DNA of 64,000 bases from a bacterium. GTDB lineage: Archaea; Thermoplasmatota; E2; JACPAO01; JAHFTW01. This document shows positions 3,719-63,503 of this stretch, piece after piece (the stretch's first letter is position 1; every line of letters starts with the position of its first letter). The translations under genes and the position numbers were made by a program. The notes beneath the pieces were generated by a model. That model did not search any database and was not told the origin of the DNA. It was given only the letters and a program-made list of their open reading frames with translations. The stretch is from the NCBI GenBank assembly GCA_040390065.1, contig JAZJZE010000006.1, positions 45,344 to 109,343 of the forward strand. Direction: 5' to 3'.

Positions 3719-3730
3719 GCCGGTCCAGCC

Positions 3731-3750: not shown

Positions 3751-3775
3751 GTGCCGTCACCGCCAACCTACGGCG

Positions 3776-3933: not shown

Positions 3934-3941
3934 AGCCCGCG

Positions 3942-3982: not shown

Positions 3983-4057
3983 GTCCAGGGATGGGACGGA
4001 CCAGCAACGCTGATTGCGTGCCGCGAGGGCCGCGTCGGTGTGCCTTGAGGCAACAAC

Positions 4058-25936: not shown

Positions 25937-26320
25937 CTACGACAAGTTCAGGATGGCCTGCGCCAGGTCGCCGTCGGTCTCCAGCAAGGCCTTGCGGGCT
26001 GCCGCCTCGGATGCGCTTGCCGCCTGCATGACGGTCTGGATGTCCTCCGGCGTGGGGGCGTATGCCGGGCTTGGCGCCTCCGCCGGTTGGGGCTTCGCTG
26101 CGGGCGCCGACCCTGCACGCTCGGAGACGTCCGGCTTGCCGACGACGGTCCAAGTCTCCTGGCCCTGCGCCTTCATCACCGAGACCTGGGCCTTGCGGAA
26201 GCGGTACTCCCTGTCGAGCGTGCGGATGGTGACCTCCTCGACGCCTTCGATGTCGCGCACGTCGATGCCCATGCGCTTCATCGCAGCCGCCATCGCCCGG
26301 GGGTCCATTCCCATCGCCAT
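25937..26320 (-). CDS. nac: Nascent polypeptide-associated complex protein
   Basis: MKRMGID..EEVTIR N-terminus and C-terminal UBA-like EDIQTVMQAA..ARKAL..TDGDLAQAIL. Confidence 0.92.
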   Translation of the reverse strand: MAMGMDPRAMAAAMKRMGIDVRDIEGVEEVTIRTLDREYRFRKAQVSVMKAQGQETWTVVGKPDVSERAGSAPAAKPQPAEAPSPAYAPTPEDIQTVMQAASASEAAARKALLETDGDLAQAILNLS

Positions 26321-26364
26321 TGCAAAGGCCAAGCCTCAAGCCTCCTTGACGTTTTTGACGCCCC

Positions 26365-40300: not shown

Positions 40301-40869
40301 GCCTGGGCCGTGCCACCGGCCGCGCGGATGGGGCCGGCAAAGTACAGGTCCACGTACTCGGTCCCGTCGGCGTTGGCGCCAATCTTGACGGCGGCGATGC
40401 CCTCGAGTGGAGCTACCAGCACGCCTTCGGTGAGGATGGAGAGTCCCGTGCGGACGGCCTGGTCCAGCGTCTTCTCGCGCGCCTCGCCCCGCTCGGTCAT
40501 CTCCTTCGCGATGTCCTGCGCGACCAGCAACGAGACGACTTCGCGGTTGCCCAGGCGGGCGGTCGCGTCACGGACGCGCTGAGCGACGCCGGGCGGTCCG
40601 ACTTGGGCCTCGACGCGGGCGGCAAGGTCTTCGGCCGGCGGAATCTCGACCTCGAGTGTCGGATCCTTGCCTTTGCGCCGTGCTTGCTTGGCGATGGCGT
40701 AGCAGCGCATGGCATCGGCGTGAAGGGATTCGAAATAGGCGCGGTAAGCAGGGCTTGCAGCCGGTCCTGTAGCCGGGGCGACACGTGAGCTTGAAGCCAA
40801 CGTTTGCGGAGCGGCAGGCGCAGCCGGCACGGTGCTGACCTCGATGGCGTTCGCCGCGTCGCCTCCCAT
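37318..40869 (-). CDS. polC: DNA polymerase II (PolD) large subunit DP2, no intein
   Basis: AVRTGLSILTEGVLVAPLEGI, YFAGPIRAAGGTAQA, GGFRLRYGR, HAAKRRNCDGDED and C-terminal Zn finger. Confidence 0.97.
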   Translation of the reverse strand: MGGDAANAIEVSTVPAAPAAPQTLASSSRVAPATGPAASPAYRAYFESLHADAMRCYAIAKQARRKGKDPTLEVEIPPAEDLAARVEAQVGPPGVAQRVRDATARLGNREVVSLLVAQDIAKEMTERGEAREKTLDQAVRTGLSILTEGVLVAPLEGIAAVKIGANADGTEYVDLYFAGPIRAAGGTAQAMSVLIADLVRRPLGIGTFKVTEEEVERYKEEIAAYKVEAHLQYNPTPAEIELIARRCPVCINGEGTERIEVSGNRDLARVETNQLRGGACLVMAEGMILKAPKILKHVEALKVEGWDFLTGLIKKEKAAELGADGIPEIPANHKFMAEILAGRPVFAQPMRPGGFRLRYGRARTGGLASTALHPATMTVLDDFLAVGTQLKVERPGKGTVATPCDTIEGPTVLLRNGNLVRIASAAEAIERRTAIAEIVDVGEMLVPYGEFAENNAILPEASWTWEWWVQEHQAATQSNTDVGQSGTLSGSDMVRLAETTGVALHPDGTLLWHDVTAVEVRSLGEAALRNGWFEDGALWLPNEAEPKETLVKLLCLHTVVDGRLRIDERLAIPLLRGLGLGVGDDDPEGGRPVVDTARRAILYDPCQPDLPGRHPTVELVSRLSGFKVMPRAPCRIGARMGRPEKADVRLMKVPVHGLFPLGEAGGLQRLLSDAIAVGTVQIGVGERTCTRCGKPAWRTFCDCGGHTDAKPAPRREGAFQEETLTPLALVAEVERARTALGLGIPEQVKLVKGLMSVTKVPEPIEKGILRARHRVYTFKDGTVRFDMTDVPVTHFRPREVGTPVARLVEMGYTHDAAGAPLVSPEQLLELRVQDIIVAESCGDYLARAADYMDDLLQRFYGLQRFYNLPSTRVEGFGQQGGDLAARRQALVGHLTIALAPHTSGGVLSRIIGYTSAQCHFGHPVFHAAKRRNCDGDEDGVMLLMDGLVNFSRAYVPDKRGGLMDLPLVLSTRLDPNEVDKEAHNVDTLTRYPLEFYAATRRHASAKDVSKKMGLVGDRIGKPAQYEGWGFTHDTTDISAGPVASAYKTLGSMMDKMTAQMELARKIRAVDEAAVGAAVIGTHFLPDLMGNLKKFSKQSVRCPKCNTKFRRMPLKGVCLACGNPNLTLTVHEGSVRKYLEISKTISLRYKIDPYTHQRILLLEQAVESLFTNDKVKKPKLFDFK

Positions 40870-40945
40870 CCGAATCACCCAGCAGAAGGCGGCCGTTAAG
40901 GCTTGGGGGCGGTGGGTCGATAAGCAGCGCTTCGATGCCCTTGTC

Positions 40946-41821
40946 ATGGTCGCCCCAGTCGTCCTCACGGGAGCCCGCTGGCTGCTCGGTCCCGACGGCA
41001 TCAAGCTGGGCAGCGGGTTGTGGAGCCATCGCCAGGACATCGCCGCCGCGGTGGCGCAAGCGCGCGACCAGTGGGATGTTGCGACTTCCGAGCAGAAGCG
41101 CCCGGTCGCCAGATTCCTACAGGATACCTTTCCGCGCGGTGCCGTCCTCGAAGGCCGCACCGGCGATTTTGGCACCAGTCGACAGGGCAACGTCGACCGG
41201 TTCAAGGCCATCGACGGCCGCGAACCCGACGGCGCCCGCATCGTTGTTGGCGTACAAAACGATCGCATGGTCAGCATCGGCCTTTTGGCCGCCGTGGCCC
41301 GCCACCGAAGGAAGGAGGCCCTGGTGCCCGAGGAAGCCGAGGCCGTGGACCACGACCACTGGGGCGGGTCCGGTTTCGTCGTCGGCGGGCCGATCCCCAA
41401 TCCGCTGGCCGCGAGCTACCTCGATTGGTTGGCGGCGCAAGGCGATCGCTTCGGCTTTGCAACCGGCATCGAGTTCCCCGTTCTGCAGACCCCGATCGGC
41501 CACTTCGAACCGACCATGGATAAGGATCTGACCGACGGCCTGGACTACGGCCTGCTTGTCCGGTTGCCAAACTACTGGCGGCCGCAGAACCAGGTCGTCC
41601 TGGCCATGGGCTGCCTCCGTCATGGGACGGAGGCGGCGGCCGCGCTTGTGACGCGGCCCGACCTGACCGTCGGCCCGTCCTTGCGGGAAATCCGTAAGCG
41701 ATACCGCCGCCGAAGCTTCTGGGCCGTCGTGTGTGGGCGGGTCGAGGGCGGCACGCTGCGGCGCATCGAGTGCGTGACGAGCGGTGGGTTGCCGAAGGCC
41801 GATGCCTGGCGGTCGCGTTAG
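40946..41821 (+). CDS. Hypothetical protein with VGGPxxN / DYGLLV / GTEAA motifs
   Basis: Globular ORF divergent from DP2; ttaag upstream. Confidence 0.65.
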   Translation: MVAPVVLTGARWLLGPDGIKLGSGLWSHRQDIAAAVAQARDQWDVATSEQKRPVARFLQDTFPRGAVLEGRTGDFGTSRQGNVDRFKAIDGREPDGARIVVGVQNDRMVSIGLLAAVARHRRKEALVPEEAEAVDHDHWGGSGFVVGGPIPNPLAASYLDWLAAQGDRFGFATGIEFPVLQTPIGHFEPTMDKDLTDGLDYGLLVRLPNYWRPQNQVVLAMGCLRHGTEAAAALVTRPDLTVGPSLREIRKRYRRRSFWAVVCGRVEGGTLRRIECVTSGGLPKADAWRSR

Positions 41822-45272: not shown

Positions 45273-45818
45273 TCAGCCGTACATGTCGCCGTCTTGCTCG
45301 GCCTCGTCGAGGGCTTCCTGCTCGTCCTGCTGGATGCCTTCTCCCTCGCGCTGCTCCTCTTGGCGCTGCTCCGCCTCGGCCTCGGCCAGGGCCTGCGCCT
45401 CCGCGGCGCGTTCGCCCCGGAACAGGCGAACCGTGATGGGGTCGTCGGCGATGGGGTCCGGCGTCTGGAGGGCGGGTGGCACGAGGCCCAGCTGTTCGAT
45501 GGCAGGATCAGGTTGGGACGTCGTGGCCTCTTGCTGCCTGGTGCCGGGGGTGGCGGCGGTCTCGGCGTCGTGGAGTGCGCGGCGGGCGACCGACCAGAGA
45601 TAGATAGGCTGCGTCGGATTGGCCGTGCGGTCGATGACGGCTTCGGGATGCAGGAGCGGCCCCGTCGGATCGGAGGCCTTTGTCAGCCAGCGCACCTCGA
45701 CGTCGTCGGGTTGTCCGCCGCCGTCGCGAACGACGCGGGACAGCCGTGGGCGCGCTTGGTCGCCCGTCAGCGTGACGGGGACGTCATTCAGGTATACGAC
45801 CGAAAATTCTGTTTTCAT
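45273..45818 (-). CDS. Hypothetical protein, putative ubiquitin-like domain plus acidic tail (paralog 1)
   Basis: Aligns with the proteins at 46557-46943 and 58118-58513. Confidence 0.75.
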   Translation of the reverse strand: MKTEFSVVYLNDVPVTLTGDQARPRLSRVVRDGGGQPDDVEVRWLTKASDPTGPLLHPEAVIDRTANPTQPIYLWSVARRALHDAETAATPGTRQQEATTSQPDPAIEQLGLVPPALQTPDPIADDPITVRLFRGERAAEAQALAEAEAEQRQEEQREGEGIQQDEQEALDEAEQDGDMYG

Positions 45819-45940
45819 GGCAAGCATCCAACGCGCAGCGGACCGGGCCTTCCGAGGAAGGCATGGGGTCCACGCGCACATTGGCTCCTGCCCTCGAACG
45901 ACACAAGGTTTCTGGGACGACTCCGGGGGGCGCGGCCCCG

Positions 45941-46477
45941 TCAGAAGCCCAGGCTGACGACGGCCACGATGGACGGCGGCGTCATGCTCTGAACGAGCGT
46001 GCCTTCCCAGTGCACCTTGGCACTGCGGCCAAGGCGGGCGAACGTGGTCCGGTTCAGGCTCTCGTTGACGAGCTGGATGAGGTCCTTGCCGTAGACTTCG
46101 CACTGGGCGTCGGTCAAGGCCAGGACGACGTGCACGTCGTGGTCGGACAGGTCTTGCAGGACGAGGCCGAGTTGCTCGATGACGTGAGCCCGGCGTGCTG
46201 CAGGCAACCCCGTGGCCGTGGCGGCCCACTCCTTGAAGAGCGGATGGCTGACGTGCACGACAATCGAGCCAGTCGAGGCCTCGGCGCCGGCGCGCCCCGG
46301 GACGTCGCATCGGGCCGTGAAACACGTTGCAAAGAGGGTTCTCGGGTGGTCGAAGTGGCCCAGCGCGGAGTGCCGCGCCTGGTTCAGGAAGTGCAGGGTG
46401 GTCGCCTCGGGGCCGACGTCCTCGCGCTTGTTTGCGACGAGGAGTTCGGTCTGCCGGGGCTTGATGATTCCGTGCAT
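45941..46477 (-). CDS. Hypothetical protein
   Basis: Globular-looking 178-aa ORF between the two paralogs, same strand. Confidence 0.6.
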   Translation of the reverse strand: MHGIIKPRQTELLVANKREDVGPEATTLHFLNQARHSALGHFDHPRTLFATCFTARCDVPGRAGAEASTGSIVVHVSHPLFKEWAATATGLPAARRAHVIEQLGLVLQDLSDHDVHVVLALTDAQCEVYGKDLIQLVNESLNRTTFARLGRSAKVHWEGTLVQSMTPPSIVAVVSLGF

Positions 46478-46556
46478 GGTGGTACACCCTCTATGCATGC
46501 AGAAGGCCAAGTATGTCTGGACGCCCAAACCTGTCGGGTCCCGTCAAGCGCCGGGG

Positions 46557-46943
46557 TTACGGCTTCAGTGGCGCAATGGGTGACGGCAGGCGCGGTTCGT
46601 TGCCATCCATTGGGACGGGAACCTCTGGCGCAGAACCGACGGTGGAAGGGGCGCGCGGCGGGGCCGGCAGGTTCGTGGGGGTCGGACGGGCTGGCGCCCG
46701 GCTGACGCAAGTGAGATACACCGCAACCGTCGGTTCGGCAGTGCGATCGATGACCTCCTCCAATCCCACGGGCTGGCCGCCGGGGTCGTTGGCGGACCGT
46801 GCACGAAGCACTTGGACCAACTCTGGCCGTTTTCCTCCGGCCACGACAATCTTCGAGACGCGCGGCCGCGGGTCGCCCATCAGTCCGACGGGTTCATTGT
46901 CGAGGTACACGGTCGCAAGCGTTGGGAGTTTCACGGGAGTCAC
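46557..46943 (-). CDS. Hypothetical protein, putative ubiquitin-like domain plus Pro-rich tail (paralog 2)
   Basis: VYLDNEPV..RPRVSKIV..GG..P..VIDRTAEP..VYL. Confidence 0.75.
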   Translation of the reverse strand: MTPVKLPTLATVYLDNEPVGLMGDPRPRVSKIVVAGGKRPELVQVLRARSANDPGGQPVGLEEVIDRTAEPTVAVYLTCVSRAPARPTPTNLPAPPRAPSTVGSAPEVPVPMDGNEPRLPSPIAPLKP

Positions 46944-47069
46944 GGGCAGCCTTGGCGATCGTGCGATGTCAGGCCCAACGGTGGGGCGGTAATAACCCGG
47001 GAAGATGGGCGAACATGTCGGGCCGCGGCGGCGTGCACCGCTGATTGGGGGCCCATCACGCGGGCCAAC

Positions 47070-47234
47070 TCACCACGCCGGCGGCCGGCCGCAGTACGTT
47101 TCGCCGTGGTCGCTGGACACGTCGTGCAGGCGCACGCCGGGGGGCAACTGGTCTTGGCGCATCGTCCAGCCGCAATCGCCGCATTCCCAGGCCGCGGGCA
47201 TACCCGAGGGAGGCGCTGCGATGCCGGTGGACAT
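47070..47234 (-). CDS. Small putative Zn-finger protein
   Basis: 54 aa; WECGDCG..H....C; directly downstream of the wHTH gene. Confidence 0.45.
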   Translation of the reverse strand: MSTGIAAPPSGMPAAWECGDCGWTMRQDQLPPGVRLHDVSSDHGETYCGRPPAW

Positions 47235-47272
47235 GCGCGTCGTCCGTGCGGGCCTGGAGGTTGGCGCCACGT

Positions 47273-48289
47273 CTACCACGCTCCCGGCACGGGCGTGGCG
47301 GCCAAGGCGGTGGGTCGGATGGTCACGACGGCGGCCACTGGGTCGAGCAAGGACAGGGCGGAATGCATGGCGATGGTGGGGCGGTAGATCCGGCTGCGGC
47401 CGTCGCGCTCTACGAGGACGAGTCCCTGTCCAGCGAATTGGCGAAGGTGCTTGGAGGCCGACGGATTGTTGAGGCCGAGGGTTTGGCAAATGGCGGTCTG
47501 GTCGAGGCCAGGCTGCTGGCTCACCAGGTTGGCGATGCGCCGCGCCGTGGGATGCATGACGACGGCCATTGCCGTGCGTTGCGACGCGGCTGGCGTGTCG
47601 GCGGCGAAGTAGCGGCGGCGCGACAGTTGGCTGACCGACACGACCATGCCATTGTCCTCGAGGCGGCGCAGGTGATGCACGGCCGTTCCCCACGCGATTC
47701 CCGTGCGTGTACGCACGTCGCTGAGGGACAGGCCGGGGTCCTGTGTGATGACTTCGTGGACGCGGGCCCGCACGGGGTTGTCCAGCAGCTTGCCGCGTGC
47801 AATGCGGGAGAAGAGCGGCAGCCCGACGACGAGACCCGCGGCGGCGCGACCCAAGCGGCCGAAGAGCCCGGAGAGGCGAGCCTGGCCGGCCCGGACGCCG
47901 TCGATGCCATACGCCAAGGCCGCGAGGAGGAAGGCAGCAATGGCGCCGCCGGCCACCGGGACGGCGACTGCGCTCACTTGGTCTCCAAGTGACGGGCGGC
48001 TGGCCGCCGACGGGGAGGGCGAGTCTCCAGTGGTGACGTCGATGGGGGCTGCCAAGACGGTCACCCGCCCCGTCGCACGCACTTGGACGTCCGCGACGCC
48101 AAGGTCCGCGACGGCGGCGGGAAGGGAAGTGTTCAGATGTGTGCCGTCGGCAAGCACGGGCACGGCCGCGACGGCAGGGTCGACGGCCTGCAACGGTTGG
48201 TCCTGACCCACGGAGAGGGCCGCGACGACGGGGCAGCAGACAAGGGCAGCAAGGCCCAGCAGCCAGCGACACGTTCGGTTCGGCATCAC
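47273..48289 (-). CDS. Membrane-anchored tandem winged-HTH transcription regulator
   Basis: Signal-like N-terminus, TM, then LLDNPVRARV..PG..WGTAVHHLRRLE and a second wHTH ..QPG..SKHL..GLV. Confidence 0.85.
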   Translation of the reverse strand: MMPNRTCRWLLGLAALVCCPVVAALSVGQDQPLQAVDPAVAAVPVLADGTHLNTSLPAAVADLGVADVQVRATGRVTVLAAPIDVTTGDSPSPSAASRPSLGDQVSAVAVPVAGGAIAAFLLAALAYGIDGVRAGQARLSGLFGRLGRAAAGLVVGLPLFSRIARGKLLDNPVRARVHEVITQDPGLSLSDVRTRTGIAWGTAVHHLRRLEDNGMVVSVSQLSRRRYFAADTPAASQRTAMAVVMHPTARRIANLVSQQPGLDQTAICQTLGLNNPSASKHLRQFAGQGLVLVERDGRSRIYRPTIAMHSALSLLDPVAAVVTIRPTALAATPVPGAW

Positions 48290-48516
48290 CCTTGGTTCCG
48301 AGACCGGTGGTTATAGCCCGAAAGGGGCAAAGCCGAGCGGGCCTCCGTCACGCACGACGCGTGTCCGGTGGACGGTGCGGACCGATCGCCCCCGCGCACG
48401 CACAGGTCGCGCGCGACGTAGACGCCATCGCCGCAAGCGAACAGCACTGCGTCATATTCCCGTGGTATCGCGTTGGCTTATGGTCGTGGGCGTGGAGTGA
48501 GTGTTAGGTGTCTCAC

Positions 48517-49272
48517 ATGACCCGCAACACAACCCCTGACAACAAACCCGGCCGCAGCATCCGTATGCTGGCGCCGCTCCTGACCGGCTGCCTCCTGCTC
48601 TTGGTGGCAGGCTCAGTCAATGCCCTGCCCGGCCTCGGCGCCGACGCGGGTGCCGCGGCGAGTGCGACCGCGGATCTGGCTGGCATGGCCAACGTGGCTG
48701 GCTCCGCGCAAGCGGACGCCCAGCTCGACGCCTCCGCCGACGCCGGCGCTGAGCTGTCCGCCGATGTTTCGGCGCAGGCCGCCGTCGACGCCGCAATGGC
48801 GCAGGCCGACCTGGCCGCTGACGCGACGCTGACGGCCGACGCGAACGCCGATGTCTCCGCTGACGCGAAGGCCGACGCCAATGTCGCCGCCGATGCGAAG
48901 GCCGACGTCAAGGCCGACGCGAGCATCATGGGCAACGTCTTGGGCTTCTTCGGTGCAATCGGCGCCGGCATCGCCGCGGGCGCCTCGGCAGCCGCGCAGG
49001 CGACTGCCTCGGTCACCGCTGGCGCCGTCGCGGCCATCACTGGCCACGCGGACGCCCAGGTTGACGCCTCGACGGACGTCGCAGTCGGCGCCCACGCGGA
49101 CGCCGCGACGCACGTCGCCGCGGACTTGGCGGCCAACGCGGGCCTCACCGGCAACGTCGCCGGCACGGTCTCCGCCGCAACGCAGGTCGCCGGCTCGGCA
49201 ACCGCCATGGTCGGCCCCCTCTCGGCCGCCGCCCAGGGCAGCGCCGCAGGCAGCCTCACCGCCGGCCTGTAA
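48517..49272 (+). CDS. Secreted Ala/Asp-rich low-complexity protein
   Basis: Signal peptide; ADAKADANV-type repeats; aggtg SD; pyrimidine tract after the stop. Confidence 0.75.
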   Translation: MTRNTTPDNKPGRSIRMLAPLLTGCLLLLVAGSVNALPGLGADAGAAASATADLAGMANVAGSAQADAQLDASADAGAELSADVSAQAAVDAAMAQADLAADATLTADANADVSADAKADANVAADAKADVKADASIMGNVLGFFGAIGAGIAAGASAAAQATASVTAGAVAAITGHADAQVDASTDVAVGAHADAATHVAADLAANAGLTGNVAGTVSAATQVAGSATAMVGPLSAAAQGSAAGSLTAGL

Positions 49273-49437
49273 ACACAACCCAACAAACCCTTCCCCCCTC
49301 CTCCCATTTGTTCGCCCCTTTTCTTCGCCGCCATGTCCTCCTCCTTGGGAGGCGGCGCCATCGCCCGCGTCGGCGTGCCGACGGGCTGCGGGTCTTGTCC
49401 CCAAACGGATAACGTTGCGCGGGGTCGACCGTTTCCT

Positions 49438-49515
49438 ATGAGCACCATCGGTCTTGTCGTCGTCATCGTCCTCGTCCTCCTGTTCTTCGGCTTCATCACC
49501 GTCGGCCTCCGCTGA
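49438..49515 (+). CDS. 25-aa hydrophobic microprotein
   Basis: MSTIGLVVVIVLVLLFFGFITVGLR with strong GC3 codon bias. Confidence 0.55.
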   Translation: MSTIGLVVVIVLVLLFFGFITVGLR

Positions 49516-49633
49516 ATGGCGGCGCTTGCCAAGGGTGCAACCGACGCACGCTGCCCTGCGCCTTCTGGCGGCCGGCTGCGAGGCCGCCACGCCACGGCGA
49601 CGGTGCCGGCGCCCTGGCCGTGCGCAGGCTAGC

Positions 49634-50266
49634 ATGCAGCGAGAGTTCTTCCACGCCGCGTATCAGGGCCGTCGCGCCGCGTGGGACGTGCCGTTCCCGC
49701 AACCAGCCATCGTTGCCGCTGCAGCACACCGTGGTTTTGCGGGCCCTGTGCTCGACCTTGGCTGCGGAACGGGCGAGAACGCGTTGTTCCTGGCTGGCTT
49801 GGGTCTGCAGGTCACTGGCATCGACCTTGCGCCGCGAGCGATCCAAGAAGCCCGCCGCAAGGCCGAGGCGCGCGGCTCGTCCGCTGCATTCCGCGTCGGC
49901 GATGCGCTGCAGGCCAGTCTGCCTGCCCATGCGTTTGGCGCCATCATCGACAGCGGCTTCTTCCACGGGCTTTCTGCAGCGGAACGACGCGCATACTGGC
50001 GCTGCGCCGTGCGGGTCCTAGCGCCAGGCGGGCGGCTGCACATCCTGGGATTCAGCGACCCCGTCACGAGAAGGATTGCCATGCAGTTCGCCGATGCGCC
50101 GGCGTCGCTTCGCCCCGCCGCGGCGACACCATCGTACTTCCTGCTGTCCGGCCAAGCTGGCATCGCGGGCATCCCCGCCACGCTCGCAACGTTCACTGCC
50201 ACGCAGCATGGCACCCATCGGCGCGTCCGCCCCGACCGGGCACCGCGCAGTCGGCCTGCGACCTGA
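49634..50266 (+). CDS. Class I SAM-dependent methyltransferase
   Basis: VLDLGCGTGENA, GIDLA, DSGFFH and LAPGG motifs. Confidence 0.88.
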   Translation: MQREFFHAAYQGRRAAWDVPFPQPAIVAAAAHRGFAGPVLDLGCGTGENALFLAGLGLQVTGIDLAPRAIQEARRKAEARGSSAAFRVGDALQASLPAHAFGAIIDSGFFHGLSAAERRAYWRCAVRVLAPGGRLHILGFSDPVTRRIAMQFADAPASLRPAAATPSYFLLSGQAGIAGIPATLATFTATQHGTHRRVRPDRAPRSRPAT

Positions 50267-50364
50267 GTCCGCGCCGCCCATCGTCCAGATCCGACGTCCG
50301 TTTGCGACCCAGCGCCGAGGCATGTCCTCGAACGGTTAAGTGGGCCGCGGCCAGACACCTGCCC

Positions 50365-50532
50365 ATGGACGTCGACAACGAGGAATGCATGTTCTGCCAC
50401 GAAGAGATCGCCGAGACGGCCGATGAGCCCGTCCACCTCGCTTTCATGGCCCACCTGCAGGCCCGCGAGCCGTGCCAGGACGCCTTCGACAACTGGAGCG
50501 AGAACATGGAATCCGATTTCCTGGGCGACTAA
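50365..50532 (+). CDS. Small CxxC-H-C Zn-finger protein (haloarchaeal-type)
   Basis: CMFC..FMAHL..C..F..W; acidic, 55 aa; ttaag about 25 nt upstream. Confidence 0.7.
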   Translation: MDVDNEECMFCHEEIAETADEPVHLAFMAHLQAREPCQDAFDNWSENMESDFLGD

Positions 50533-50691
50533 CCGCGTCGCCGCGGACCCCAGAGCCGGCTCGCTTGCCCGGCACCTCTTGCACGCACCCTCTCCGGACA
50601 TGTTCGCCGCAGCAGGCGGGTCAAATCCTGACCACGCTCTCCTTCATTCAGCCGCATGCGACGCCATCGGTGTGGCCTCGAGTTGATTCCC

Positions 50692-50961
50692 ATGACCCGC
50701 AACAGCCAACCCAGCAACCCTGAGACGCCGCCGACGCCGCGGTCAGGCCGCCTCCTGCGCGCGGTTCGCGTGCCCCGCTCCCCCGAGGCCGACGCCATCG
50801 CCTTGCGCCAGACGCATATCGGCCTCGTCACGGCGGAGCAACACATGCAGGACCTCCTGTACGGCATCTCGGCCCACGGCGTTCGGGGATGTCACGGCAG
50901 CCACGTCGCACGCATCCAAGCAACGGGTCCGGACGCCGGCCACCCCGGCTGCACCGTCTGA
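50692..50961 (+). CDS. Hypothetical protein
   Basis: 89-aa ORF filling an intergenic gap on the same strand. Confidence 0.4.
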   Translation: MTRNSQPSNPETPPTPRSGRLLRAVRVPRSPEADAIALRQTHIGLVTAEQHMQDLLYGISAHGVRGCHGSHVARIQATGPDAGHPGCTV

Positions 50962-51076
50962 TTCCCCGCCTGCCGCGTCGTCGCCCCGCCGGTCGCCACG
51001 ACATGTCTTGCCCTTGCGCTAGGCCAACGGACCTTGTCCCAATAGCCCGATACTTCGCCCTGGCAAAGGCCGACTT

Positions 51077-51340
51077 ATGCAAGTCGTCCGCGTCTGGCTC
51101 GTCGTCGTTGGCATCTCGTTCATGGTGGCTGGCGCCATCCTCATGTCTTTCTCCGCCGGCGTCGGCCGCTCCTTTGCCCTGGGCGTCCTGTCCGCCGGGA
51201 TCCTCGTCCTGGCTGGATCTGCCATCGTGCGCGTCGCCGCCAACGCCCTCGGTGCCCGCCCCGACTCAGGGCCGGGAAACGATGACCTCCACGATTTCCT
51301 CATCGCTCCCCGCGATGTATCCCAGACGCGGGGGCGCTAG
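51077..51340 (+). CDS. Small two-TM membrane protein
   Basis: Two hydrophobic helices; adjacent to the next gene. Confidence 0.65.
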   Translation: MQVVRVWLVVVGISFMVAGAILMSFSAGVGRSFALGVLSAGILVLAGSAIVRVAANALGARPDSGPGNDDLHDFLIAPRDVSQTRGR

Positions 51341-51342
51341 GC

Positions 51343-52065
51343 ATGGCCGCGTTCCCTGTTGCGGACCCGGCCGATGGGCAAACGAACACGCGCCCATCCT
51401 TGTCCGCGCGGTTCCGCTTGCGCCCTCGTGTCCTTGCCTGGCTTGGGCTGGTCGGCATCGCAGAGTTCACGGCCGCCATCCTGGTCCTTCACTTGACCGC
51501 CCTTCGCAAGGAACCGGAACACATGAGCCAGTTCGCCAACACACGCTACGCGCTCCTCTGGAACCTGGCCATCTTCAGCTTCACGATCGGCGGCGCCGCC
51601 CTCAGCCTCGCCATCCGGCCGCACCTCGAGCACGGACTGTTCCGCCGCGCCGGGCTTTGGATGATCTGGCTCTCCGTCGTCGGCGCCATCCTTCTCACCA
51701 CCTTCCCGATGGACGGCGGCTACCAAGCCCCGACGATGGCGGGCGCCATCCATGGCGGCGCAGCCTTCTCCATGTTCATGCTCCTCGGCATCGCCATGAT
51801 CGTCCTTGCCCCGGCGTTCCGCAAGAGCCCGGTCTGGCGTTCGTTCGCTTACCCGTCCCTGGTCATCGGCATGTTGGTGAGCGCCTGCGGCATCACGTAC
51901 CTCGTCGCGACGCTCAACAGCATGGAGCTGGCCGCCTTCGCGCAGCGCATCATGGTGGGCTTCATCGCAACCTGGTTCATCCTGCTTGGCGTCCGGCTCC
52001 TGAAGGTGCCTGGCAGCGTCCAGGCCCCGCCGGCGCCAGTCGGCGCTCTTGCCGTCGCGACCTGA
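51343..52065 (+). CDS. DUF998-like membrane protein
   Basis: Multi-TM; HMSQ, FPMD, IH and AQR motifs. Confidence 0.75.
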   Translation: MAAFPVADPADGQTNTRPSLSARFRLRPRVLAWLGLVGIAEFTAAILVLHLTALRKEPEHMSQFANTRYALLWNLAIFSFTIGGAALSLAIRPHLEHGLFRRAGLWMIWLSVVGAILLTTFPMDGGYQAPTMAGAIHGGAAFSMFMLLGIAMIVLAPAFRKSPVWRSFAYPSLVIGMLVSACGITYLVATLNSMELAAFAQRIMVGFIATWFILLGVRLLKVPGSVQAPPAPVGALAVAT

Positions 52066-52173
52066 ACACGCCTCGTGCCAAATGCATGGGATGGACGGGT
52101 CGCTCCGCGGGCGCTGGCGCACATGTGCGGCCTGCCAAACAGGAATAGCCCGTGGGCGCCCTCATAGGATTGC

Positions 52174-52335
52174 ATGTCCCTGCTCGGCATCGTCCTGCTC
52201 GTCGTGATCGTCGTCCTCTTGCTTGGCGCAGCGCCCTCCTGGCCTCACAGCCGGCAATGGGGTTACCGGCCCATGGGTGGGCTCGGCGTCCTCCTCGTCA
52301 TCCTGCTCGTCCTGCTGCTCTTGAGAGTCATCTGA
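52174..52335 (+). CDS. DUF3309-family small membrane protein (absent from the ORF track)
   Basis: LLGAAPSWPHSRQWGYRPMGGLG signature. Confidence 0.88.
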   Translation: MSLLGIVLLVVIVVLLLGAAPSWPHSRQWGYRPMGGLGVLLVILLVLLLLRVI

Positions 52336-52618
52336 GACCCCGGGCCGCGCCATCTGTCCAAACGCCGGGCCATGCCGGCCCCTCGCCCGCGCCCCGTGCG
52401 GTGCCCGGCACCGCGCCCCTGACCACGCCTCGCGACGGCCGTGCCATGACCCGGGCCACCCGATGGGGGCTCGACGTCGTCAATCGTCCTGCTTCCTTGT
52501 CGTCGCGGCCGCAGGTCCATGCCGGCTCCTTGCCCGCGTCAATCCACGCAGTGGCTGGGCCAGGCGCCCCCCAGGACGCGACCCGCGAGCCGGGGAGCGA
52601 TGGCCGCGGAGGTCTGGC

Positions 52619-53206
52619 CTAGAAGTATCCAAGGCGGCGAATCTCGAAGGAGCACGCGCCCGCACCGGAGGCGTTGCAGGATGCCTCGGACACGTGCACG
52701 CGTGGAGCCTGGGACCGAAGCGCTCGCCCAATCGCCTTGCGTTCGCGGTCACAGCCGTGGCCACCCTTGCGGCCCATCCGGCACGAGCCGCATCCACTGA
52801 GGAGAAACAGGCAGCGGTCGTCATCCGCGCTGACAATCCGGCCGGCGCCAAGGTGCATGACGGCGGCGGCGCGTTCCAATCCGGCGACCCAGCGGGGCAC
52901 CACGCCGGGGGTGGCGGGTGATGGCGGCAGCGGCGCGGTTGGCGCGACCCTGCGCACGGTGGCGCCTTGCGGCCGGGCGTTGCGGCGCGGAGGGGGGCTG
53001 GCCATGCGAGCCTGGCCAGACTGGTCGTGCGCCGCCTGTGGGCCGGCGTGGAAGCGAGCGAACAGGACGCACACGGTGAGCATCGCCAAGCCGCCGAGAA
53101 TGAGGATGAGGGCGCCCTTGCCCGCGGGAAGGAAGGGGATGGCCGCGATGACGCCGCCGCGGCCTGCAATCGCCTCCCACGTCAAACCTACAGAACCCGG
53201 GTTCAC
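52619..53206 (-). CDS. Membrane protein with C-terminal V4R-like domain (start uncertain)
   Basis: TM followed by CGSC..C.RE..I..VSEASC..G...CSFEI. Confidence 0.6.
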   Translation of the reverse strand: MNPGSVGLTWEAIAGRGGVIAAIPFLPAGKGALILILGGLAMLTVCVLFARFHAGPQAAHDQSGQARMASPPPRRNARPQGATVRRVAPTAPLPPSPATPGVVPRWVAGLERAAAVMHLGAGRIVSADDDRCLFLLSGCGSCRMGRKGGHGCDRERKAIGRALRSQAPRVHVSEASCNASGAGACSFEIRRLGYF

Positions 53207-53343
53207 GGCATGGGTTCCTCGCTGCAGGCCTAGGGCTTGCGGGGACGCGGGTGCGGGCCACAATGTTGCATTCGGGCAGGCCTGCTGCGGGGCCCCGTCT
53301 TCGTCCCACAACTGCCTTGCCTGCCGCCGGGCAACCGCCAGTC

Positions 53344-54687
53344 GTGAAGCTGTCCACACGCATCTCTTCCAGCCCTTCCATCGAGCCCGCCCAAGTCGCA
53401 ACCGGGGCCACCAAGCCGGCTGCGGCCCCAGGCAAGCGGCACGCCACCGTCTTCATCATCATGGACGCCGGCCGCGCCGACTACGTCCGAGCCGACACGA
53501 TGCCGTTCTCGCACGGCCTCATGCAGCAGAGCATCCAAGGGTCCTTCGAGAGCCCGCCGGGCTTTGCGCAGCGCACGGTGCTGTTCTCCGGCCGCTACCC
53601 GGACACGTCTGGCAACTTCAGCCAATTCGTCTTCGACCCGGTGGCCTCGCCGTTCAAGTGGGTCAAGTCGCTCGGCCCGCTTCGCAACTTGGTGAAGCCT
53701 CGCAAGATCCTCTACCCGACCCGCATGGCGATCCAGAAGATCACCAAGTGGAAGACCGGCGCGTTCCACACGGATCCTGCCTGGATCCCGCCCAAGTTCA
53801 TGCCGTTCTTCGCCATGTGCGAGGACATGAAGCCAATGTACGACCCCGGCGCCCTCGGCGCCCCGAGCATCTTCGACCTGTGCCGCGAGCACGGACTCAA
53901 GTTCCGGTACCTGGCCCACCCCGTCAGCGGTGACGACGAGGAGATCCACAAGATCCTGGTGCGCGAGTTGCGCTCCGGCGCCGACTACGACCTGTACGTC
54001 GCCCAGTTCAGCGTCACGGACCAGAAAGGCCACACCGACGGCCCCTTCAGTGACCGCATGCAGAAGGGCCACTTGCGCGACCTCGACGGCAAGTTCGCAG
54101 GCGTCCATGCCGCCCTTGCCGCGGGCTACGATTCATGGGACCTCTTCATCTGCGGCGACCACGGCATGGCACCGGTCGAGCAGCACATCAACATCCTCTC
54201 GACGCTCAAGGCCCTGGACGTCAAGCCGGCGGTCGACTACGTGGTCTTCGTCAACAGCACCCTTGCCGTCCTATGGTATCTCACGGAGAAGGGCCGCACG
54301 ACCATCGAGGCAGCGCTTCCCGGGATTCCGGGAACCCACGTCGTGGACGAGGCCGAGCGCCGCACCCGGCGCATCCCGCTCGACCGCCGCTGGGGCGACC
54401 GCATGCTTGCTGCGGAATCCGGCGTCCTGTTCTGGCCGGACTACTTCCACGTCACGGATTCGACGATTGTCGGGATGCACGGATACCTCGACAAGAGCTC
54501 GGAAACGCACGGTGTTGCCATCCTCGCGTCGAGCAACGGGCACACGGCGCCACGCAAGCTCGGACTGCGGCCGCTGGTCGACGTCTTCCCCACGTTGTGC
54601 GAGCTGCTGGGAGTTCCGACGCCGGCCGGACAAGAAGGGACGAGCATGCTTGCGACAGCCGAGGAAACGGTCACGACCAAAGCGTGA
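53344..54687 (+). CDS. Alkaline-phosphatase-superfamily (NPP-like) enzyme
   Basis: IIMDAGRADY, SGRYP, DQKGH..GP, GDHGM and GMHGY motifs. Confidence 0.85.
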   Translation: MKLSTRISSSPSIEPAQVATGATKPAAAPGKRHATVFIIMDAGRADYVRADTMPFSHGLMQQSIQGSFESPPGFAQRTVLFSGRYPDTSGNFSQFVFDPVASPFKWVKSLGPLRNLVKPRKILYPTRMAIQKITKWKTGAFHTDPAWIPPKFMPFFAMCEDMKPMYDPGALGAPSIFDLCREHGLKFRYLAHPVSGDDEEIHKILVRELRSGADYDLYVAQFSVTDQKGHTDGPFSDRMQKGHLRDLDGKFAGVHAALAAGYDSWDLFICGDHGMAPVEQHINILSTLKALDVKPAVDYVVFVNSTLAVLWYLTEKGRTTIEAALPGIPGTHVVDEAERRTRRIPLDRRWGDRMLAAESGVLFWPDYFHVTDSTIVGMHGYLDKSSETHGVAILASSNGHTAPRKLGLRPLVDVFPTLCELLGVPTPAGQEGTSMLATAEETVTTKA

Positions 54688-54752
54688 ACTGCTCAAGGGC
54701 GCGGCCCCCGAAGCCGGCGAGCCACGGCATGGCGACCCCCATCCGCCCCGAT

Positions 54753-55571
54753 TCAGGGGTTTTCGAACGCCGCCGGCGCGCCATCGCCTTCCAGCGAGCA
54801 CGACATTTGCCGCAATTCGTAGGCCCCTTCCCCTTTCTCCAGGCGCGGCGTCCCGTATTGGATGTCGAAGGACGTCCACGGGCCGGATGGGATACTGGTT
54901 CCGAGAGCGAAATTGACCGTGATGGATGCACCAGGGCCAACTTTCCACTCCTTGCTGGGAGCGTGCACATCGCCGCCGCCAGCACGAATCGTAACCGAAC
55001 CACCGCCCAGATACGAAGTCAAATTGCCTTTTGCCAGTAGGTTTCTCAACGTGAATTGGGCCGTCGCGTCGCCGCTGTTCGTCGTGACGTTGTGAACGAC
55101 GCGGATTGAGGACAGCGTCGCCACCAATGCGTCGCTCTCGCAGGAACCGGGGCCGACGTGCGTACCCGGCTCGGGAATGATGCTGTTGAATCCGATCCCA
55201 AACGCAACCAGCCACGACACCATGCCGATGACGCCAAACGTTTGGCCAAGACGCGGCAACAGGGGCTTCCGGGCGCCACGTAGCGCAAGCCTGGAAAGAA
55301 TGATGGCGGGCAGCCCAAACAAGAACCCGACGACATTTGCCCAGCCCAGCAGATTCGGGGTTATCCCATGATTCCAGACGAGGAGACCTACGGCGATCGC
55401 CAGCGGCGCCGTCAAGGCAAACACGCCGACCCCAAACCCCACCATCCCAAGTCGCGCACGTGACGGCTGGACGGCTTCTTGCAACGCTGCGTCCGCCACG
55501 CCTGGGCCATTGTACCCCCGTTTCTTGGCCTTGCCTATGGTGCTGAACGGGAAGGCGGAGGGCCGGGGCAC
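54753..55571 (-). CDS. Hypothetical membrane protein
   Basis: Three hydrophobic segments followed by a beta-rich domain. Confidence 0.55.
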   Translation of the reverse strand: MPRPSAFPFSTIGKAKKRGYNGPGVADAALQEAVQPSRARLGMVGFGVGVFALTAPLAIAVGLLVWNHGITPNLLGWANVVGFLFGLPAIILSRLALRGARKPLLPRLGQTFGVIGMVSWLVAFGIGFNSIIPEPGTHVGPGSCESDALVATLSSIRVVHNVTTNSGDATAQFTLRNLLAKGNLTSYLGGGSVTIRAGGGDVHAPSKEWKVGPGASITVNFALGTSIPSGPWTSFDIQYGTPRLEKGEGAYELRQMSCSLEGDGAPAAFENP

Positions 55572-55579
55572 CGGGGCCC

Positions 55580-56719
55580 CTACGGCCCGTGGAAGCGCAC
55601 GGCATCCTCGAGGATGGCATGCGTCTGGATGGCAAGCGAGCGCCAGTCGTGGTCCCGTGCGACGCGGGTCCGGCCGGTCTCGCCGAGACGGCGCGCTAGG
55701 TCTTCGTCCTCGAGGAGCCAGCCGATCTTCGAGGCGAGGTCCGCGGCATCACCGGGTTTGGCAAGCAGGCCGTTCTCGCCGTCACGCACGAAGTCCGGGA
55801 TGCCACCGATGCGCGACGCCACGACCGGGCGCCGGCAAGCGTTTGCCTCCGCAAGCACCATGCCGAAGGATTCGGCCTCGCTCGTGCTGGGAAGGACGAC
55901 GACGGCCGCCCGGCGGTATTGCTCGATGAGTTGGGCTTCGGGCAAGCGGCCAACGACACGCAGGGCACCGTGGAATTCGCGGGACAAGGCCTCGAACTCG
56001 GCGCGGCGGTCGCCGTCGCCGACCAAGGTCAACGTCACGGCGGGGACCTGCCGCAACAGGATACGAAACGCCCGCACGAGGACGTCCACGCCCTTCCATG
56101 CATAGGACTTGGCAAGCGGCGCGACGAACAGGATGCCCTTGCCCGATGCCGGGCTGTCGCTGTCGAAACGCTGCACGTCGACGCCGGGGGGGACCACGCG
56201 CACCCGGTCGCGGTGCCGGTGCAACGCATGATCACGCACGTAGGGCGACACGGCGATGAGGCCAGCTGAACGCGCAATCATCCAGCGTTCCATGGTGGAG
56301 CGGTGTAACGCGGCCATGGCGGCCAACGGTGGGGAGGAGCCAGAAAGCCGGCCGGCGTGGTAGGTCAGCACGAACGGCGTCTCGGCCTTGCGGGCGGCAA
56401 GGAACGCCATCTCGGCGGCAAACGGGACCGGTGTGTGGGCGACGACGACGTCTGGGGAGAAGCGGCGGATGGCGGCTGCCACGGCGCTCTTGAAGGCGGG
56501 TTCGACTGGCGAGTTCCCGAGGGCCCACCGCGACGGGATGCGCTCCACGCCGACGCCGCGGCGTGGGCCGCTTGCGGCGCCGGTCCGCGTGAGCGTGAGC
56601 ACTTCGACTTCGTGCAGGCGGTCAGCCAGGCTGCCGAGGATGGAATTGGCATAGCGCTCCAATCCGCCTCCTTCTGGATCGTAGTACGGTGTGACGGCCA
56701 GGATGTGCAAGCCCGTCAC
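55580..56719 (-). CDS. Glycosyltransferase family 4
   Basis: GGLERY, KGVD and ESFGMVLAEANAC..PVV motifs; GTGA overlap with the upstream gene. Confidence 0.92.
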   Translation of the reverse strand: MTGLHILAVTPYYDPEGGGLERYANSILGSLADRLHEVEVLTLTRTGAASGPRRGVGVERIPSRWALGNSPVEPAFKSAVAAAIRRFSPDVVVAHTPVPFAAEMAFLAARKAETPFVLTYHAGRLSGSSPPLAAMAALHRSTMERWMIARSAGLIAVSPYVRDHALHRHRDRVRVVPPGVDVQRFDSDSPASGKGILFVAPLAKSYAWKGVDVLVRAFRILLRQVPAVTLTLVGDGDRRAEFEALSREFHGALRVVGRLPEAQLIEQYRRAAVVVLPSTSEAESFGMVLAEANACRRPVVASRIGGIPDFVRDGENGLLAKPGDAADLASKIGWLLEDEDLARRLGETGRTRVARDHDWRSLAIQTHAILEDAVRFHGP

Positions 56720-57858
56720 CGCGTCTGGGGCATCGGGGCAGTGCGGCCCTGGTCGACCACTTCGCCGTACACGGCCTCGAGGCGATCCGTGACGGCATCC
56801 CAGGAGAATTCCTTGTGGATCCGTGACGAGAGGGCGGGGCCACGGGCAAAGCGTTCCGGCTCGAGGGCGCGTCGGATCTGCGCCGAGAGGTCCTGAACGT
56901 TGCCGGGCTTGGCGACGAGGCCGCCGAGGCGGGCCAGGTCGGCCACACCGGGAAGGTCGGAGGCCACGACGGGTGTGCCGCAGGCCATGCTCTCGAGGAT
57001 GGAGATGCCGAAGCATTCTTGGCGCGTGACGCTGGGAAGAAGGGTCAGGCTCGCCCCCGAATACAGGGCTGGCAGGTCTGCGTCGGCCACGCATCCGAGG
57101 AAGCGGGCATCGACGCCAAGGCGGCGGGCCAACGCGTCGAGTTGGCCGCGCAGCGGTCCGTCGCCAACGATGAGGAGCGGGATGCCGGGTGGCGAGGCCG
57201 CCAAGGCGCGCAGGAGCACGTCCAGGCCCTTGTATGGGACGAGGCGCCCGACGAACAGGAGGTAGTTGCTAGGGCCATCGCTTGGCCTCGGGCGGAACTT
57301 GGCCGGGTCGACGCCGTTTGGCACGACGCGCCAGCGTTGTTCGGGGATGTGGTCCAGGCTTGCGGCGCTGCGGCCGTACGCCACGGAGCGCACGAGCACC
57401 GAACTGGCAAGATCGTAGACTGGCGGCGCGATGGCTTGGTAGACTCCAGCTGCGAGTCGGCCGACCGGGGTTCCGGGGTCAGGCTCGAAATGGAAGTCCA
57501 GGACGGAAGGGATGCCAAGTTCGTGGGCGCGGCGCAGGACCTTCGACGTCGTGAAGGGATAGGTCGCCGCGACGTGGACGACGTCGGAGTCGTGCGGGAT
57601 GTGTCGCGACAGCGGCGCAAGGGGCGCCCGCAGGAAGGTCGTGATGCGTGGTTCGCGCACGATGTGGACGCCATGCTCCGTCGTCGTCTCGCGGCCGCCC
57701 TGGGTGGAGCAGATGAGCGTCACGTCGTGGCCGCGGTGGGCCAGTTTCCGTGAGATTTCGCAAAAGACGCGCTCCACGCCGCCGACGTGGCCGCTGGCCG
57801 CGTCATCGCTCGCGGGGGGCGGGCTGGGGTCGAAAGCAGACACGAACGTGATGCGCAT
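56716..57858 (-). CDS. Glycosyltransferase family 4
   Basis: GGVER, VGRLVPYKG and ECFGISILESMACGTPVV motifs. Confidence 0.92.
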   Translation of the reverse strand: MRITFVSAFDPSPPPASDDAASGHVGGVERVFCEISRKLAHRGHDVTLICSTQGGRETTTEHGVHIVREPRITTFLRAPLAPLSRHIPHDSDVVHVAATYPFTTSKVLRRAHELGIPSVLDFHFEPDPGTPVGRLAAGVYQAIAPPVYDLASSVLVRSVAYGRSAASLDHIPEQRWRVVPNGVDPAKFRPRPSDGPSNYLLFVGRLVPYKGLDVLLRALAASPPGIPLLIVGDGPLRGQLDALARRLGVDARFLGCVADADLPALYSGASLTLLPSVTRQECFGISILESMACGTPVVASDLPGVADLARLGGLVAKPGNVQDLSAQIRRALEPERFARGPALSSRIHKEFSWDAVTDRLEAVYGEVVDQGRTAPMPQTR

Positions 57859-58117
57859 GCCCCGTATGCGGTCGGTGCCCGGTTGAATGGGTTGAGGGAC
57901 GACACCGGGGGGGTTTCCGGCTGCCGCCGCGGGCAGCGATGGCGATGCATGCGAGGGCCGCGCGTTGCGGTTTTGCCGGGAGGAAAAGCGACGCGCGCCG
58001 GTGCGCCCTCCGAACCAGTGCCGGAGGTAGGCGTCGCTCAGCAGAGAACTTGAGGCAAGACGCCGCGGCAGATCGAAGGCCGACGCGGCCGGATGACGCG
58101 GGCCGAGGAGCATGGGC

Positions 58118-58513
58118 CTAGAACTTCCACTCCGGGTCGGTCGGCGCCCACGAGCGGGTGAGCGCGTCCCCGGGGGCGGGATCCGGGCTCTGCGGTGGGA
58201 TACGGCCCATCGGCTGTGCGCGGCGCACGCGGCCCTCGCTGCGAAGCACGGAGCGGCGCTCGCGGGAGATCAGGTAGATCGGATTGACGGGATCCGCCTT
58301 GCGGTCGAGGATGTCTTCGAGGTGCAGGTGGGTGCCGCTCGTGGAGGCTGCCGACGGGACGCGGATGATCTCGAGTTCACTGGGGCGGGCCCCGACGGCG
58401 CGCACCACTTCCAGGACCTGCGGCGCCGCCTCTCCGGCCAGGGCGACGGGTTGGTTGTCGAAGAAAACCTCCGACAAGGCAGAGGCGGGGGCGGGGTCAG
58501 GGATGTCGAGCAT
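58118..58513 (-). CDS. Hypothetical protein, putative ubiquitin-like domain (paralog 3)
   Basis: VFFDNQPV..P.V..VV..G..P..ILDR.ADP..PIYL. Confidence 0.72.
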   Translation of the reverse strand: MLDIPDPAPASALSEVFFDNQPVALAGEAAPQVLEVVRAVGARPSELEIIRVPSAASTSGTHLHLEDILDRKADPVNPIYLISRERRSVLRSEGRVRRAQPMGRIPPQSPDPAPGDALTRSWAPTDPEWKF

Positions 58514-63379: not shown

Positions 63380-63503
63380 TTCAGCAAGAGCCAGCACGAT
63401 GCCGGCTGACGCGCCGACGGGCACATGTTCGGGTGCCGACGGTTGGATGACCCCGGACGCCGTACGTCGACGTGCTGGCTTGAATCGCCAGGCGAGACCC
63501 GCC

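Follow-up and report, generated by a model that had tools for sequence, protein, structure and literature searches.

What is a ubiquitin-like (Ubl) domain for in an archaeon when it sits at the N-terminus of its protein, is followed by a variable tail and has no conjugation genes found beside it? This question is raised by a 64,000-nucleotide stretch of DNA, here called the window (G000:C6:45344-109343), from the genome assembly G000 (2.68 Mb, 89% complete, about 68% G+C) of an uncultured member of the Thermoplasmatota; positions given below without a prefix are those of the window. A gene for the large subunit of DNA polymerase D lies in the window (37318-41400, minus strand; Pfam scan), and the host is an archaeon. 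An earlier note, made from the sequence alone, had described in this window three paralogs of an unannotated domain of about 75 amino acids with a ubiquitin-like pattern, each followed by a different disordered tail. Our analysis revealed that these proteins belong to a lineage-restricted family, referred to here as the head-tail family, in which a head with the predicted fold of bacterial multi-ubiquitin domains precedes the tail. We tentatively read its members as non-conjugated Ubl-domain docking adaptors whose tails would give specificity, a possible reading that we place slightly short of even probability.

Paralog 1 (P1; 45273-45827, minus strand) consists of 184 amino acids, with a beta-grasp domain of about 77 residues and a tail of 107 residues ending in DMYG. 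Paralog 2 (P2; 46557-46943, minus strand) has 128 amino acids, with the beta-grasp at residues ~10-81 and then a 51-residue proline-rich tail (29% proline), and paralog 3 (P3; 58118-58513, minus strand) has 131 amino acids, the beta-grasp being followed by an arginine- and proline-rich tail that ends in DPEWKF. The peptides quoted in the earlier note were located on the minus strand, and pairwise BLASTP among the three proteins gave E-values of 9e-17 (47% identity), 3e-16 (33%) and 3e-17 (38%) in alignments of about 75 residues that contain no more than one gap, so that the common domain is far beyond chance and the alignment is almost gapless, as had been described. The count of three paralogs stands for the window; the genome total is four, the fourth (P4; G000:C4:58334-58720, 138 amino acids, same build) having been found on contig C4 by a profile search of the whole assembly. 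The true start of P1 is probably the second methionine, at 45818, because its orthologues begin MKTEF.... A crude Nei-Gojobori comparison with orthologues put the ratio of nonsynonymous to synonymous substitution rates (dN/dS) at 0.10-0.28 in the domain, at 0.33-0.66 in most tails and at 0.17-0.33 in g178, the 178-residue protein encoded between P1 and P2 (45941-46477, minus strand); since dS is mostly saturated, these values show purifying selection and no more. The genes are taken to be real because they have relatives in other genomes and because of the dN/dS of the domain.

The fold of the head was predicted with an AlphaFold2 model of P2 built on a 44-row family alignment, and secondary structure was assigned with DSSP. 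The model contains strands at residues 12-14, 17-19, 43-48, 57-59 and 75-81 and a helix at residues 29-35, which is the beta-beta-alpha-beta-beta-beta topology that had been supposed from the sequence pattern, with a predicted local distance difference test score (pLDDT) of 92-97 over residues 10-80. Comparison of this model with the PDB by Foldseek yielded a single match at E<=0.001, 9d5b_A (5.9e-4, 25% identity, 76 columns), which is the Methylobacterium multi-ubiquitin filament protein; it was followed in order by 8u38, Raf Ras-binding domains, BubA, ThiS, TtuB and ubiquitin. When the 998 best Foldseek chains were realigned with VIA, the top six were all multi-ubiquitin, BilA or BubA proteins (Z 8.5-8.9; root-mean-square deviation (rmsd) 2.2-3.6 A over 68-74 residues), and ubiquitin and the other chains reached Z <=6.9. 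An independent VIA search of 48,161 chains found four at Z>=8, all multi-ubiquitin or BubA (top Z 8.8), followed by FAT10 at Z 6.8, and its best 50 matches were all ubiquitin-fold or other beta-grasp domains. In its model, then, the head is a beta-grasp of the bacterial multi-ubiquitin type; structure prediction and Foldseek, the check proposed in the earlier note, returned the suggested fold, and the nearest solved structures in Foldseek and both VIA comparisons are those with which likeness had been suspected. A PEGA/Ig-like reading of P2, for which ESM Atlas offered PEGA-domain clusters at 0.75-0.78 (best feature 0.81, below lead level), was rejected, as the fold contradicts it.

The sequence of the domain matches no described family. 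Neither Pfam nor NCBIfam gave anything above noise for P1-P3 or g178; Big_3_3 (E 0.0063) and BcsO (E 0.092) appeared on P1 below cut-off and were absent from the other paralogs, and both were discarded. PADLOC found no match for the paralogs or g178, and full-text literature searching gave no paper on the head-tail family. The domain is thus unannotated, as claimed, and does not fall into an already characterised family. The multi-ubiquitin family PF14452 (Multi_ubiq) matched none of the three window paralogs at E<=10; against the 44 aligned family members it gave one match (E 0.14), below its gathering cut-off of 24.5 bits, and a whole-genome scan at E<=1 recovered a gene on contig C5 alone. 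The family profile, compared with PDB sequences, reached 8u38 and 9d5b at E about 1. A weak echo between the head-tail family and Multi_ubiq is seen in the first strands and the helix (VYLDNEPV...P.V..I...G..P). As the sequence link is merely a hint, the domain is called multi-ubiquitin-like in structure and is kept out of PF14452.

Distribution was followed by profile search with hidden Markov models (HMMs), as had been proposed. A word-indexed protein search identified 41 family proteins of 96-177 amino acids among 81 candidates, all unnamed or "hypothetical", and an exhaustive HMM search of 1.84 billion cluster representatives identified 177 at E<=0.001, of which 156 were at E<=1e-10. The top row of the exhaustive search, P0046 (a public protein of 2358 amino acids), is spurious and unrelated to the family, because its score sums weak matches to 43 profile positions over 26 identical repeats; these repeats are of about 77 amino acids each and contain cysteine. 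The family was found in 13 of the 38 genomes of the window's order, with one to five copies per genome: in 9 of 12 genomes of the window's genus plus G000 (10/13), in three of four of a sister family and in none of 19 from other genera of the window's family. In a phylum sample of 401 genomes it occurred in eight, every one inside the window's order, and a scan of metagenome contigs gave one locus only, of 1.1 kb. Fused forms were rejected, since the long open frames concerned (e.g. 783 amino acids in locus L020) arise on the antisense strand as artefacts of high GC content; the L020 gene encodes a stand-alone protein of about 180 amino acids. Among the genomes sampled, the head-tail family is a lineage-specific archaeal family confined to one order of uncultured Thermoplasmatota.

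Architecture was analyzed in 186 family proteins, in 168 of which the end of the domain (D-R...Y-L) could be located. The domain ends at median residue 74, which places the head at the extreme N-terminus. The tails range from 4 to 284 amino acids (median 72), and are rich in alanine, proline, glycine, serine and glutamic acid; those of the paralogs have a hydrophobic fraction of 0.17-0.20 compared with 0.32-0.34 for the domain. The model shows no secondary structure in the P2 tail (residues 82-128; pLDDT 57-69), and the paralog tails are dissimilar, in agreement with the different disordered tails described earlier. Pfam found no UBA, BAG or other recognisable domain in the tails of the paralogs. 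Terminal Gly-Gly, whose absence in the manner of SAMPs had been pointed out for the three paralogs, occurs in none of the 186 members and a terminal glycine in eight. At positions +1 to +10 past the last strand, glycine is present in at most 38 of 168 members at any one position, and no GG[QE] was noticed when the final 12 residues of all 186 were inspected by eye.

A tree of the head domains, with paired support values, resolved a P1-type clade (100/99), a P2-type group, a P4-type group into which the sister-family genomes fall, a group including P3, which is fast-evolving and lies on a long branch, and a group with glycine-, serine-, asparagine- and glutamine-rich tails (95/88). Short motifs are kept within these groups. 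Both the motif D-[PR]-[VA]-[IV]-x-Q-L-G and an acidic AE..(Q/E)RQE(E/D) stretch occur in six of six P1-type tails, P1 itself having D-P-A-I-E-Q-L-G, an acidic AEAEQRQEE... stretch and the terminal DMYG. Many P2-type and P3-type tails finish with (E/D)PEW plus one or two residues. Across the family, a C-terminal (E/D)W-type tryptophan within the last six residues was found in 18 of 186 members and an acidic C-terminus (>=5 Asp/Glu in the last twelve) in 33. In the fifth group (L015:1504-2454, L016:739-1749 and L017:643-1749) the tails, about 240-290 amino acids long and nearly all glycine, serine, asparagine and glutamine, retain a DWPV motif and an acidic end; by composition they look prion-like or phase-separating. 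Conservation of motifs within orthologue groups argues that the tails are not throw-away propeptides. A reading of the MYG end of P1 as an HbYX motif was dropped because the C-terminal residues vary among five P1-type orthologues.

Pfam scans of the window's main open reading frames (ORFs) found no E1, E2 or JAB gene in the window, and none was seen among a small number of neighbouring ORFs scanned with Pfam in related loci; the synteny comparison of five other genomes used the window's own genes only. In the whole genome, the two ThiF matches are confined to contigs C17 and C5 and the sole Prok-JAB match is on C9. The earlier statement that no such gene is recognisable nearby therefore holds.

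The C5 match belongs to an operon resembling Bil or 6E systems (locus L029, G000:C5:221500-230500, positions 2563-4985, plus strand), with a Multi_ubiq-like ORF of 97 amino acids, a Prok-E2_E protein (29 bits), a ThiF E1 of 468 amino acids and an unnamed ORF of 123 amino acids. Its Ubl resembles the head-tail family in being single-domain and of about 90 amino acids and in beginning the fold in the same way (TTFYVDNEPI...; hhalign 47 columns). It differs from the family in that it reaches PF14452 at 23.4 bits (cut-off 24.5), has relatives ending in ...FTG.TPVS, and is accompanied by an E2 and an E1. PF14452 is itself rare in the phylum, with two of 301 sampled genomes positive at E<=1e-4. The C5 Bil-like Ubl was found in two of 13 genomes of the genus compared with 10 of 13 for the head-tail family, and its profile picked up none of the head-tail paralogs; conjugation through the C5 operon is thus not the general mode of the family.

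Comparison with known systems places the head close to one group and the architecture close to another. The Ubls of the Bil and Bub systems (BilA/BubA; PF14452; PDB 8u38, 9d5b, 9d59, 9cd2 and 9ea8) have the same fold (Z 8.1-8.9, rmsd 2.2-3.6 A, 68-74 residues). According to a preprint, their beta-grasp lies at the C-terminus, behind a variable or disordered N-terminal part (Gong et al., bioRxiv 10.1101/2024.11.21.623966); set against that account, the head-tail family is reversed, with the beta-grasp N-terminal and the tail C-terminal. The family further differs from Bil and Bub in having no terminal glycine, no E1, E2, JAB or DUF6527 neighbours found, scores below the Pfam cut-off and an archaeal, lineage-restricted range. 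SAMPs, ThiS and MoaD share the beta-grasp (ThiS, TtuB, MoaD and Haloferax volcanii SAMP1 at Z about 5.5 by VIA); unlike them, the head-tail proteins have no C-terminal Gly-Gly, no Pfam ThiS/MoaD match and no adjacent E1, and the tail blocks the C-terminus. They are also unlike Pup-like disordered tags, as they have a folded head and no GGQ/GGE end was seen.

Eukaryotic type 2 UBL-domain adaptors such as Rad23, Dsk2 and BAG1 consist of an N-terminal non-conjugatable UBL and a long extension. The head-tail proteins have the same build, and the UBLs of Rad23, Dsk2 and BAG1 are structural matches at Z 5.6-6.4 (VIA); they are unlike these adaptors in that their tails carry no UBA, BAG or other recognisable domain and there is no sequence relationship. 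The architecture of UBL adaptors fits the family, with short motifs kept in the tails. An N-terminal beta-grasp, the lack of a C-terminal glycine and the lack of a dedicated E1, E2 or protease together make non-covalent action most likely. In the mechanism that we propose, a cytoplasmic protein would combine a constant N-terminal Ubl head with a variable disordered tail bearing short conserved motifs; the head would be a non-covalent docking module for a common partner, with g178 as the prime candidate, and each kind of tail would recruit or scaffold clients of its own, as in the eukaryotic adaptors.

The candidacy of g178, which the earlier note had also named, draws on gene order and co-occurrence. 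In the conserved three-gene core, g178 always lies between a P2-type and a P1-type gene. In L024, L025 and L028 a second copy and another family member are about 1 kb apart, with an oppositely oriented membrane-protein ORF between them. The g178 family was found in nine of the 38 genomes from the order; each of the nine belongs to the window's genus and holds the head-tail family too. Both the conserved order and the co-occurrence speak for a link between g178 and the head-tail family. An alignment of 20 rows revealed invariant C52, T54, H75, W84, D109, Q125, E139, R143 and W157-E158-G159. The g178 model (pLDDT 74.8; predicted template-modelling score 0.74) has a four-stranded sheet (52-59, 70-77, 154-165 and 168-177) packed with long helices, and C52/T54 and H75 may be neighbours, because they lie on the two strands of one hairpin as read from the strand ranges only. 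No credible fold relative was found with Foldseek (best E 1.4 in the PDB and 0.084 in BFVD) or in a VIA-wide search, where the best Z of 5.0 (TamA POTRA and SPFH domains) is at noise level; the g178 profile searched against PDB sequences gave a nanobody as best match (E 0.2), and the ESM Atlas matches came without an informative family (Atlas model pLDDT 0.38). Complex prediction for g178 with P2 scored 0.00 against a mark of 0.32, which is no evidence either way. In two related genomes a second g178 copy lies directly downstream of an archaeosortase-like gene (Exosortase_EpsH by Pfam, E 1e-10; L006:1651-3188 and L007:2308-3874, plus strand); an HSP20-domain gene follows this pair in L006.

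Synteny was determined by tblastn of the window's own genes against fetched loci of related genomes. Upstream of P2 lies a gene for a helix-turn-helix (HTH) regulator of 338 amino acids (HTH338; 47273-48289, minus strand) with the winged-helix domains HTH_HVO_0163_N and MarR_2 (Pfam) and a hydrophobic, extracytoplasmic-looking N-terminal part; in PADLOC it gives generic winged HTH matches only. Divergent from it is a gene for an alanine- and aspartic acid-rich protein of 254 amino acids (48508-49272, plus strand), which has a hydrophobic N-terminal leader and long Ala/Asp-rich repeats, gave no match in a Pfam scan, and has tblastn matches in L005-L009. The order of divergent Ala/Asp-rich gene, 338-residue regulator, P2-type gene, g178 and P1-type gene is repeated in five other genomes, namely G016 (L005/L010), G013 (L006/L011), G009 (L007/L009), G017 (L008/L012/L026) and G011 (L014). 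Homologues of HTH338 also immediately precede the Gly/Ser-tail paralog in L015 and L016, and in L021 and L027 they immediately follow other family members. Between the regulator gene and P2, an ORF of 54 amino acids with a CxxC...H...C pattern (47070-47234, minus strand) may encode a small zinc-binding protein; it occupies the same place in L005/L010 (70% identity over 40 amino acids) and L006/L011 (46% over 52), and it was not found in the other loci by tblastn and has no Pfam match.

Analysis of the 120 nucleotides 5' of family genes, aligned by eye, revealed the word ACATGTTCG, which precedes an AT-rich TTAT-like element by about a dozen bases. In the window it lies at 47010-47018 (minus strand), 75 nucleotides 5' of the P2 start, and is a candidate operator. 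Allowing at most one mismatch on the sense strand within 150 nucleotides upstream, it was present at 14 of 25 family genes, compared with 588 of 20000 (2.9%) random windows from the same loci. By group, it was found upstream of five of six P2-type genes, all three genes of the Gly/Ser-tail group (L015-L017; two copies 30 nucleotides apart), all three of the L024/L025/L028 group, two of six P1-type genes, one of five P4-type genes (with L020) and neither of two P3-type genes. It was found in none of six tests upstream of the HTH gene or the divergent Ala-rich gene. The window holds four exact copies compared with 0.39 expected, the further three being at 50598-50606 (plus), 63423-63431 (plus) and 20400-20408 (minus). 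Occurrence of ACATGTTCG in several paralog groups suggests that these form one regulon, on which the upstream membrane-anchored winged-helix regulator possibly acts. The copy at 50598 lies between genes, following a small DUF7501 ORF (50392-50532), and the other two further copies are inside ORFs. A 12-base palindrome, CGAACATGTTCG, is complete at G000:C12:20389-20400, with overlapping matches on both strands.

Several observations weigh against the docking-adaptor reading. Its functional part is drawn from architecture and gene context only. The nearest structural relatives of the head are conjugated modifiers, so a route through processed precursors has to be reckoned with. Sequence homology to Multi_ubiq is not established: hhalign gave a probability of 35% with the genome's own Multi_ubiq-like protein and 13% with the alignment of that protein. 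Four genomes (G007 and three of the sister family) have the head-tail family without g178, which is therefore not a universal partner. With regard to the regulon, ACATGTTCG is absent upstream of P1, P3 and P4 in the window's own genome; it is short, and its 27 genome-wide occurrences compared with 18 for a reversed control mean that the word alone is not diagnostic. Orthologous promoters, moreover, are not independent, and the argument is that three paralogous groups at different loci share the word.

Three other explanations were weighed with the same evidence. Many eukaryotic Ubls are made as precursors, and the head-tail proteins could likewise be precursor modifiers from which a protease, perhaps g178, trims the tail, the freed head then being conjugated by an E1 and E2 encoded elsewhere, for example in the C5 operon. 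In its favour, the head is nearest among solved structures to the conjugated Ubls of Bil and Bub systems, the genome does have an E2_E-ThiF operon with its own Multi_ubiq-like Ubl, and g178 has invariant C52 and H75 on neighbouring model strands together with conserved acidic residues. Against this explanation, the first 10 positions past the last strand show no conserved site of glycine or small residues, and none of the 186 members has a terminal Gly-Gly; the tails keep their motifs within orthologue groups, no known protease fold was matched by g178 (Foldseek PDB, VIA), no E1, E2 or JAB was found in the window or in the scanned neighbouring ORFs of related loci, and the Bil-like Ubl reaches two of the 13 genomes of the genus, the family 10. 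We consider the precursor explanation very unlikely. A self-assembling scaffold, in which heads polymerise or low-complexity tails condense into a brush-like or phase-separated body, is quite unlikely. The preprint describes Ca2+-dependent filaments formed by three-domain Ubl3 proteins, which are among the best structural matches of the head, and considers the N/G-rich tails of some bacterial Ubls as possible drivers of phase separation (Gong et al., bioRxiv 10.1101/2024.11.21.623966); the long Gly/Ser/Asn/Gln-rich tails of L015-L017 (about 240-290 amino acids) would suit such a role. Against this, the filament formers have three beta-grasp domains and defined Ca2+ sites and the family proteins have one domain, and most tails are short (median 72 amino acids) and rich in proline, alanine or acidic residues.

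The gene context also allows the heads to be accessories of the membrane-anchored HTH regulator, binding its regulator or sensor part and tuning a small envelope-related regulon, the tails being incidental. This explanation, partly compatible with docking adaptors, would account for the HTH gene upstream of P2 in five other genomes, for the HTH338 homologues at L015, L016, L021 and L027, for the shared word ACATGTTCG and for envelope-flavoured neighbours (the Ala/Asp-rich protein with its leader, the GT4 genes by P3 and the archaeosortase-like genes by the g178 paralogs in L006 and L007). It is nevertheless unlikely, given that ACATGTTCG was found upstream of the HTH gene or divergent Ala-rich gene in none of six tests, that P3 and P4 lie in unrelated contexts, and that the tie between head and regulator comes from gene context and nothing physical. 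The docking-adaptor reading can itself be drawn out into a complete non-covalent archaeal Ubl system, derived from the multi-ubiquitin lineage without E1 or E2, in which adaptors with a UBL head and an intrinsically disordered tail (proline-rich with EPEW ends, acidic, or rich in glycine, serine, asparagine and glutamine) would dock on g178, with its unseen fold and invariant Cys/His cluster, and the tails would recruit clients or form condensates, making it a prokaryotic counterpart of UBL shuttle factors; such a system seems improbable.

To our knowledge, work on prokaryotic Ubls currently deals almost exclusively with conjugated modifiers (SAMPs, Bil, Bub and CBASS-type). The head-tail family, so far unnamed, presents the same Ubl head in an inverted architecture and with no conjugation hardware found. 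If docking is its mode, recognition of the ubiquitin fold without conjugation exists in archaea, in the manner of Rad23, Dsk2 and BAG-type proteins. The locus yields two uncharacterised families, the head-tail family and g178 with no detectable fold relative, and a compact candidate regulon with a putative operator word, within the narrow range of one order of uncultured Thermoplasmatota.

The two remaining paralogs have other neighbours. P3 lies upstream of two GT4 glycosyltransferase genes on the same strand (56716-57858 and 55580-56671, minus; Pfam scan), mentioned as context only, and is divergent from a CheB-CheR-PAS gene; this context (GT4b, then the paralog, with CheB-CheR opposite) is repeated in G016 (L023). 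P4 is flanked by an iron-permease gene and by a gene for an unnamed membrane protein of 337 amino acids. Elsewhere in the window, the product of 25937-26332 (minus strand), which we take to be an ordinary archaeal nascent polypeptide-associated complex protein, carries at its C-terminus a UBA-like domain (UBA_HYPK; 26 bits, slightly below cut-off). A UBA-like domain is a module of the ubiquitin-binding type, and this genome has several ubiquitin-fold proteins.

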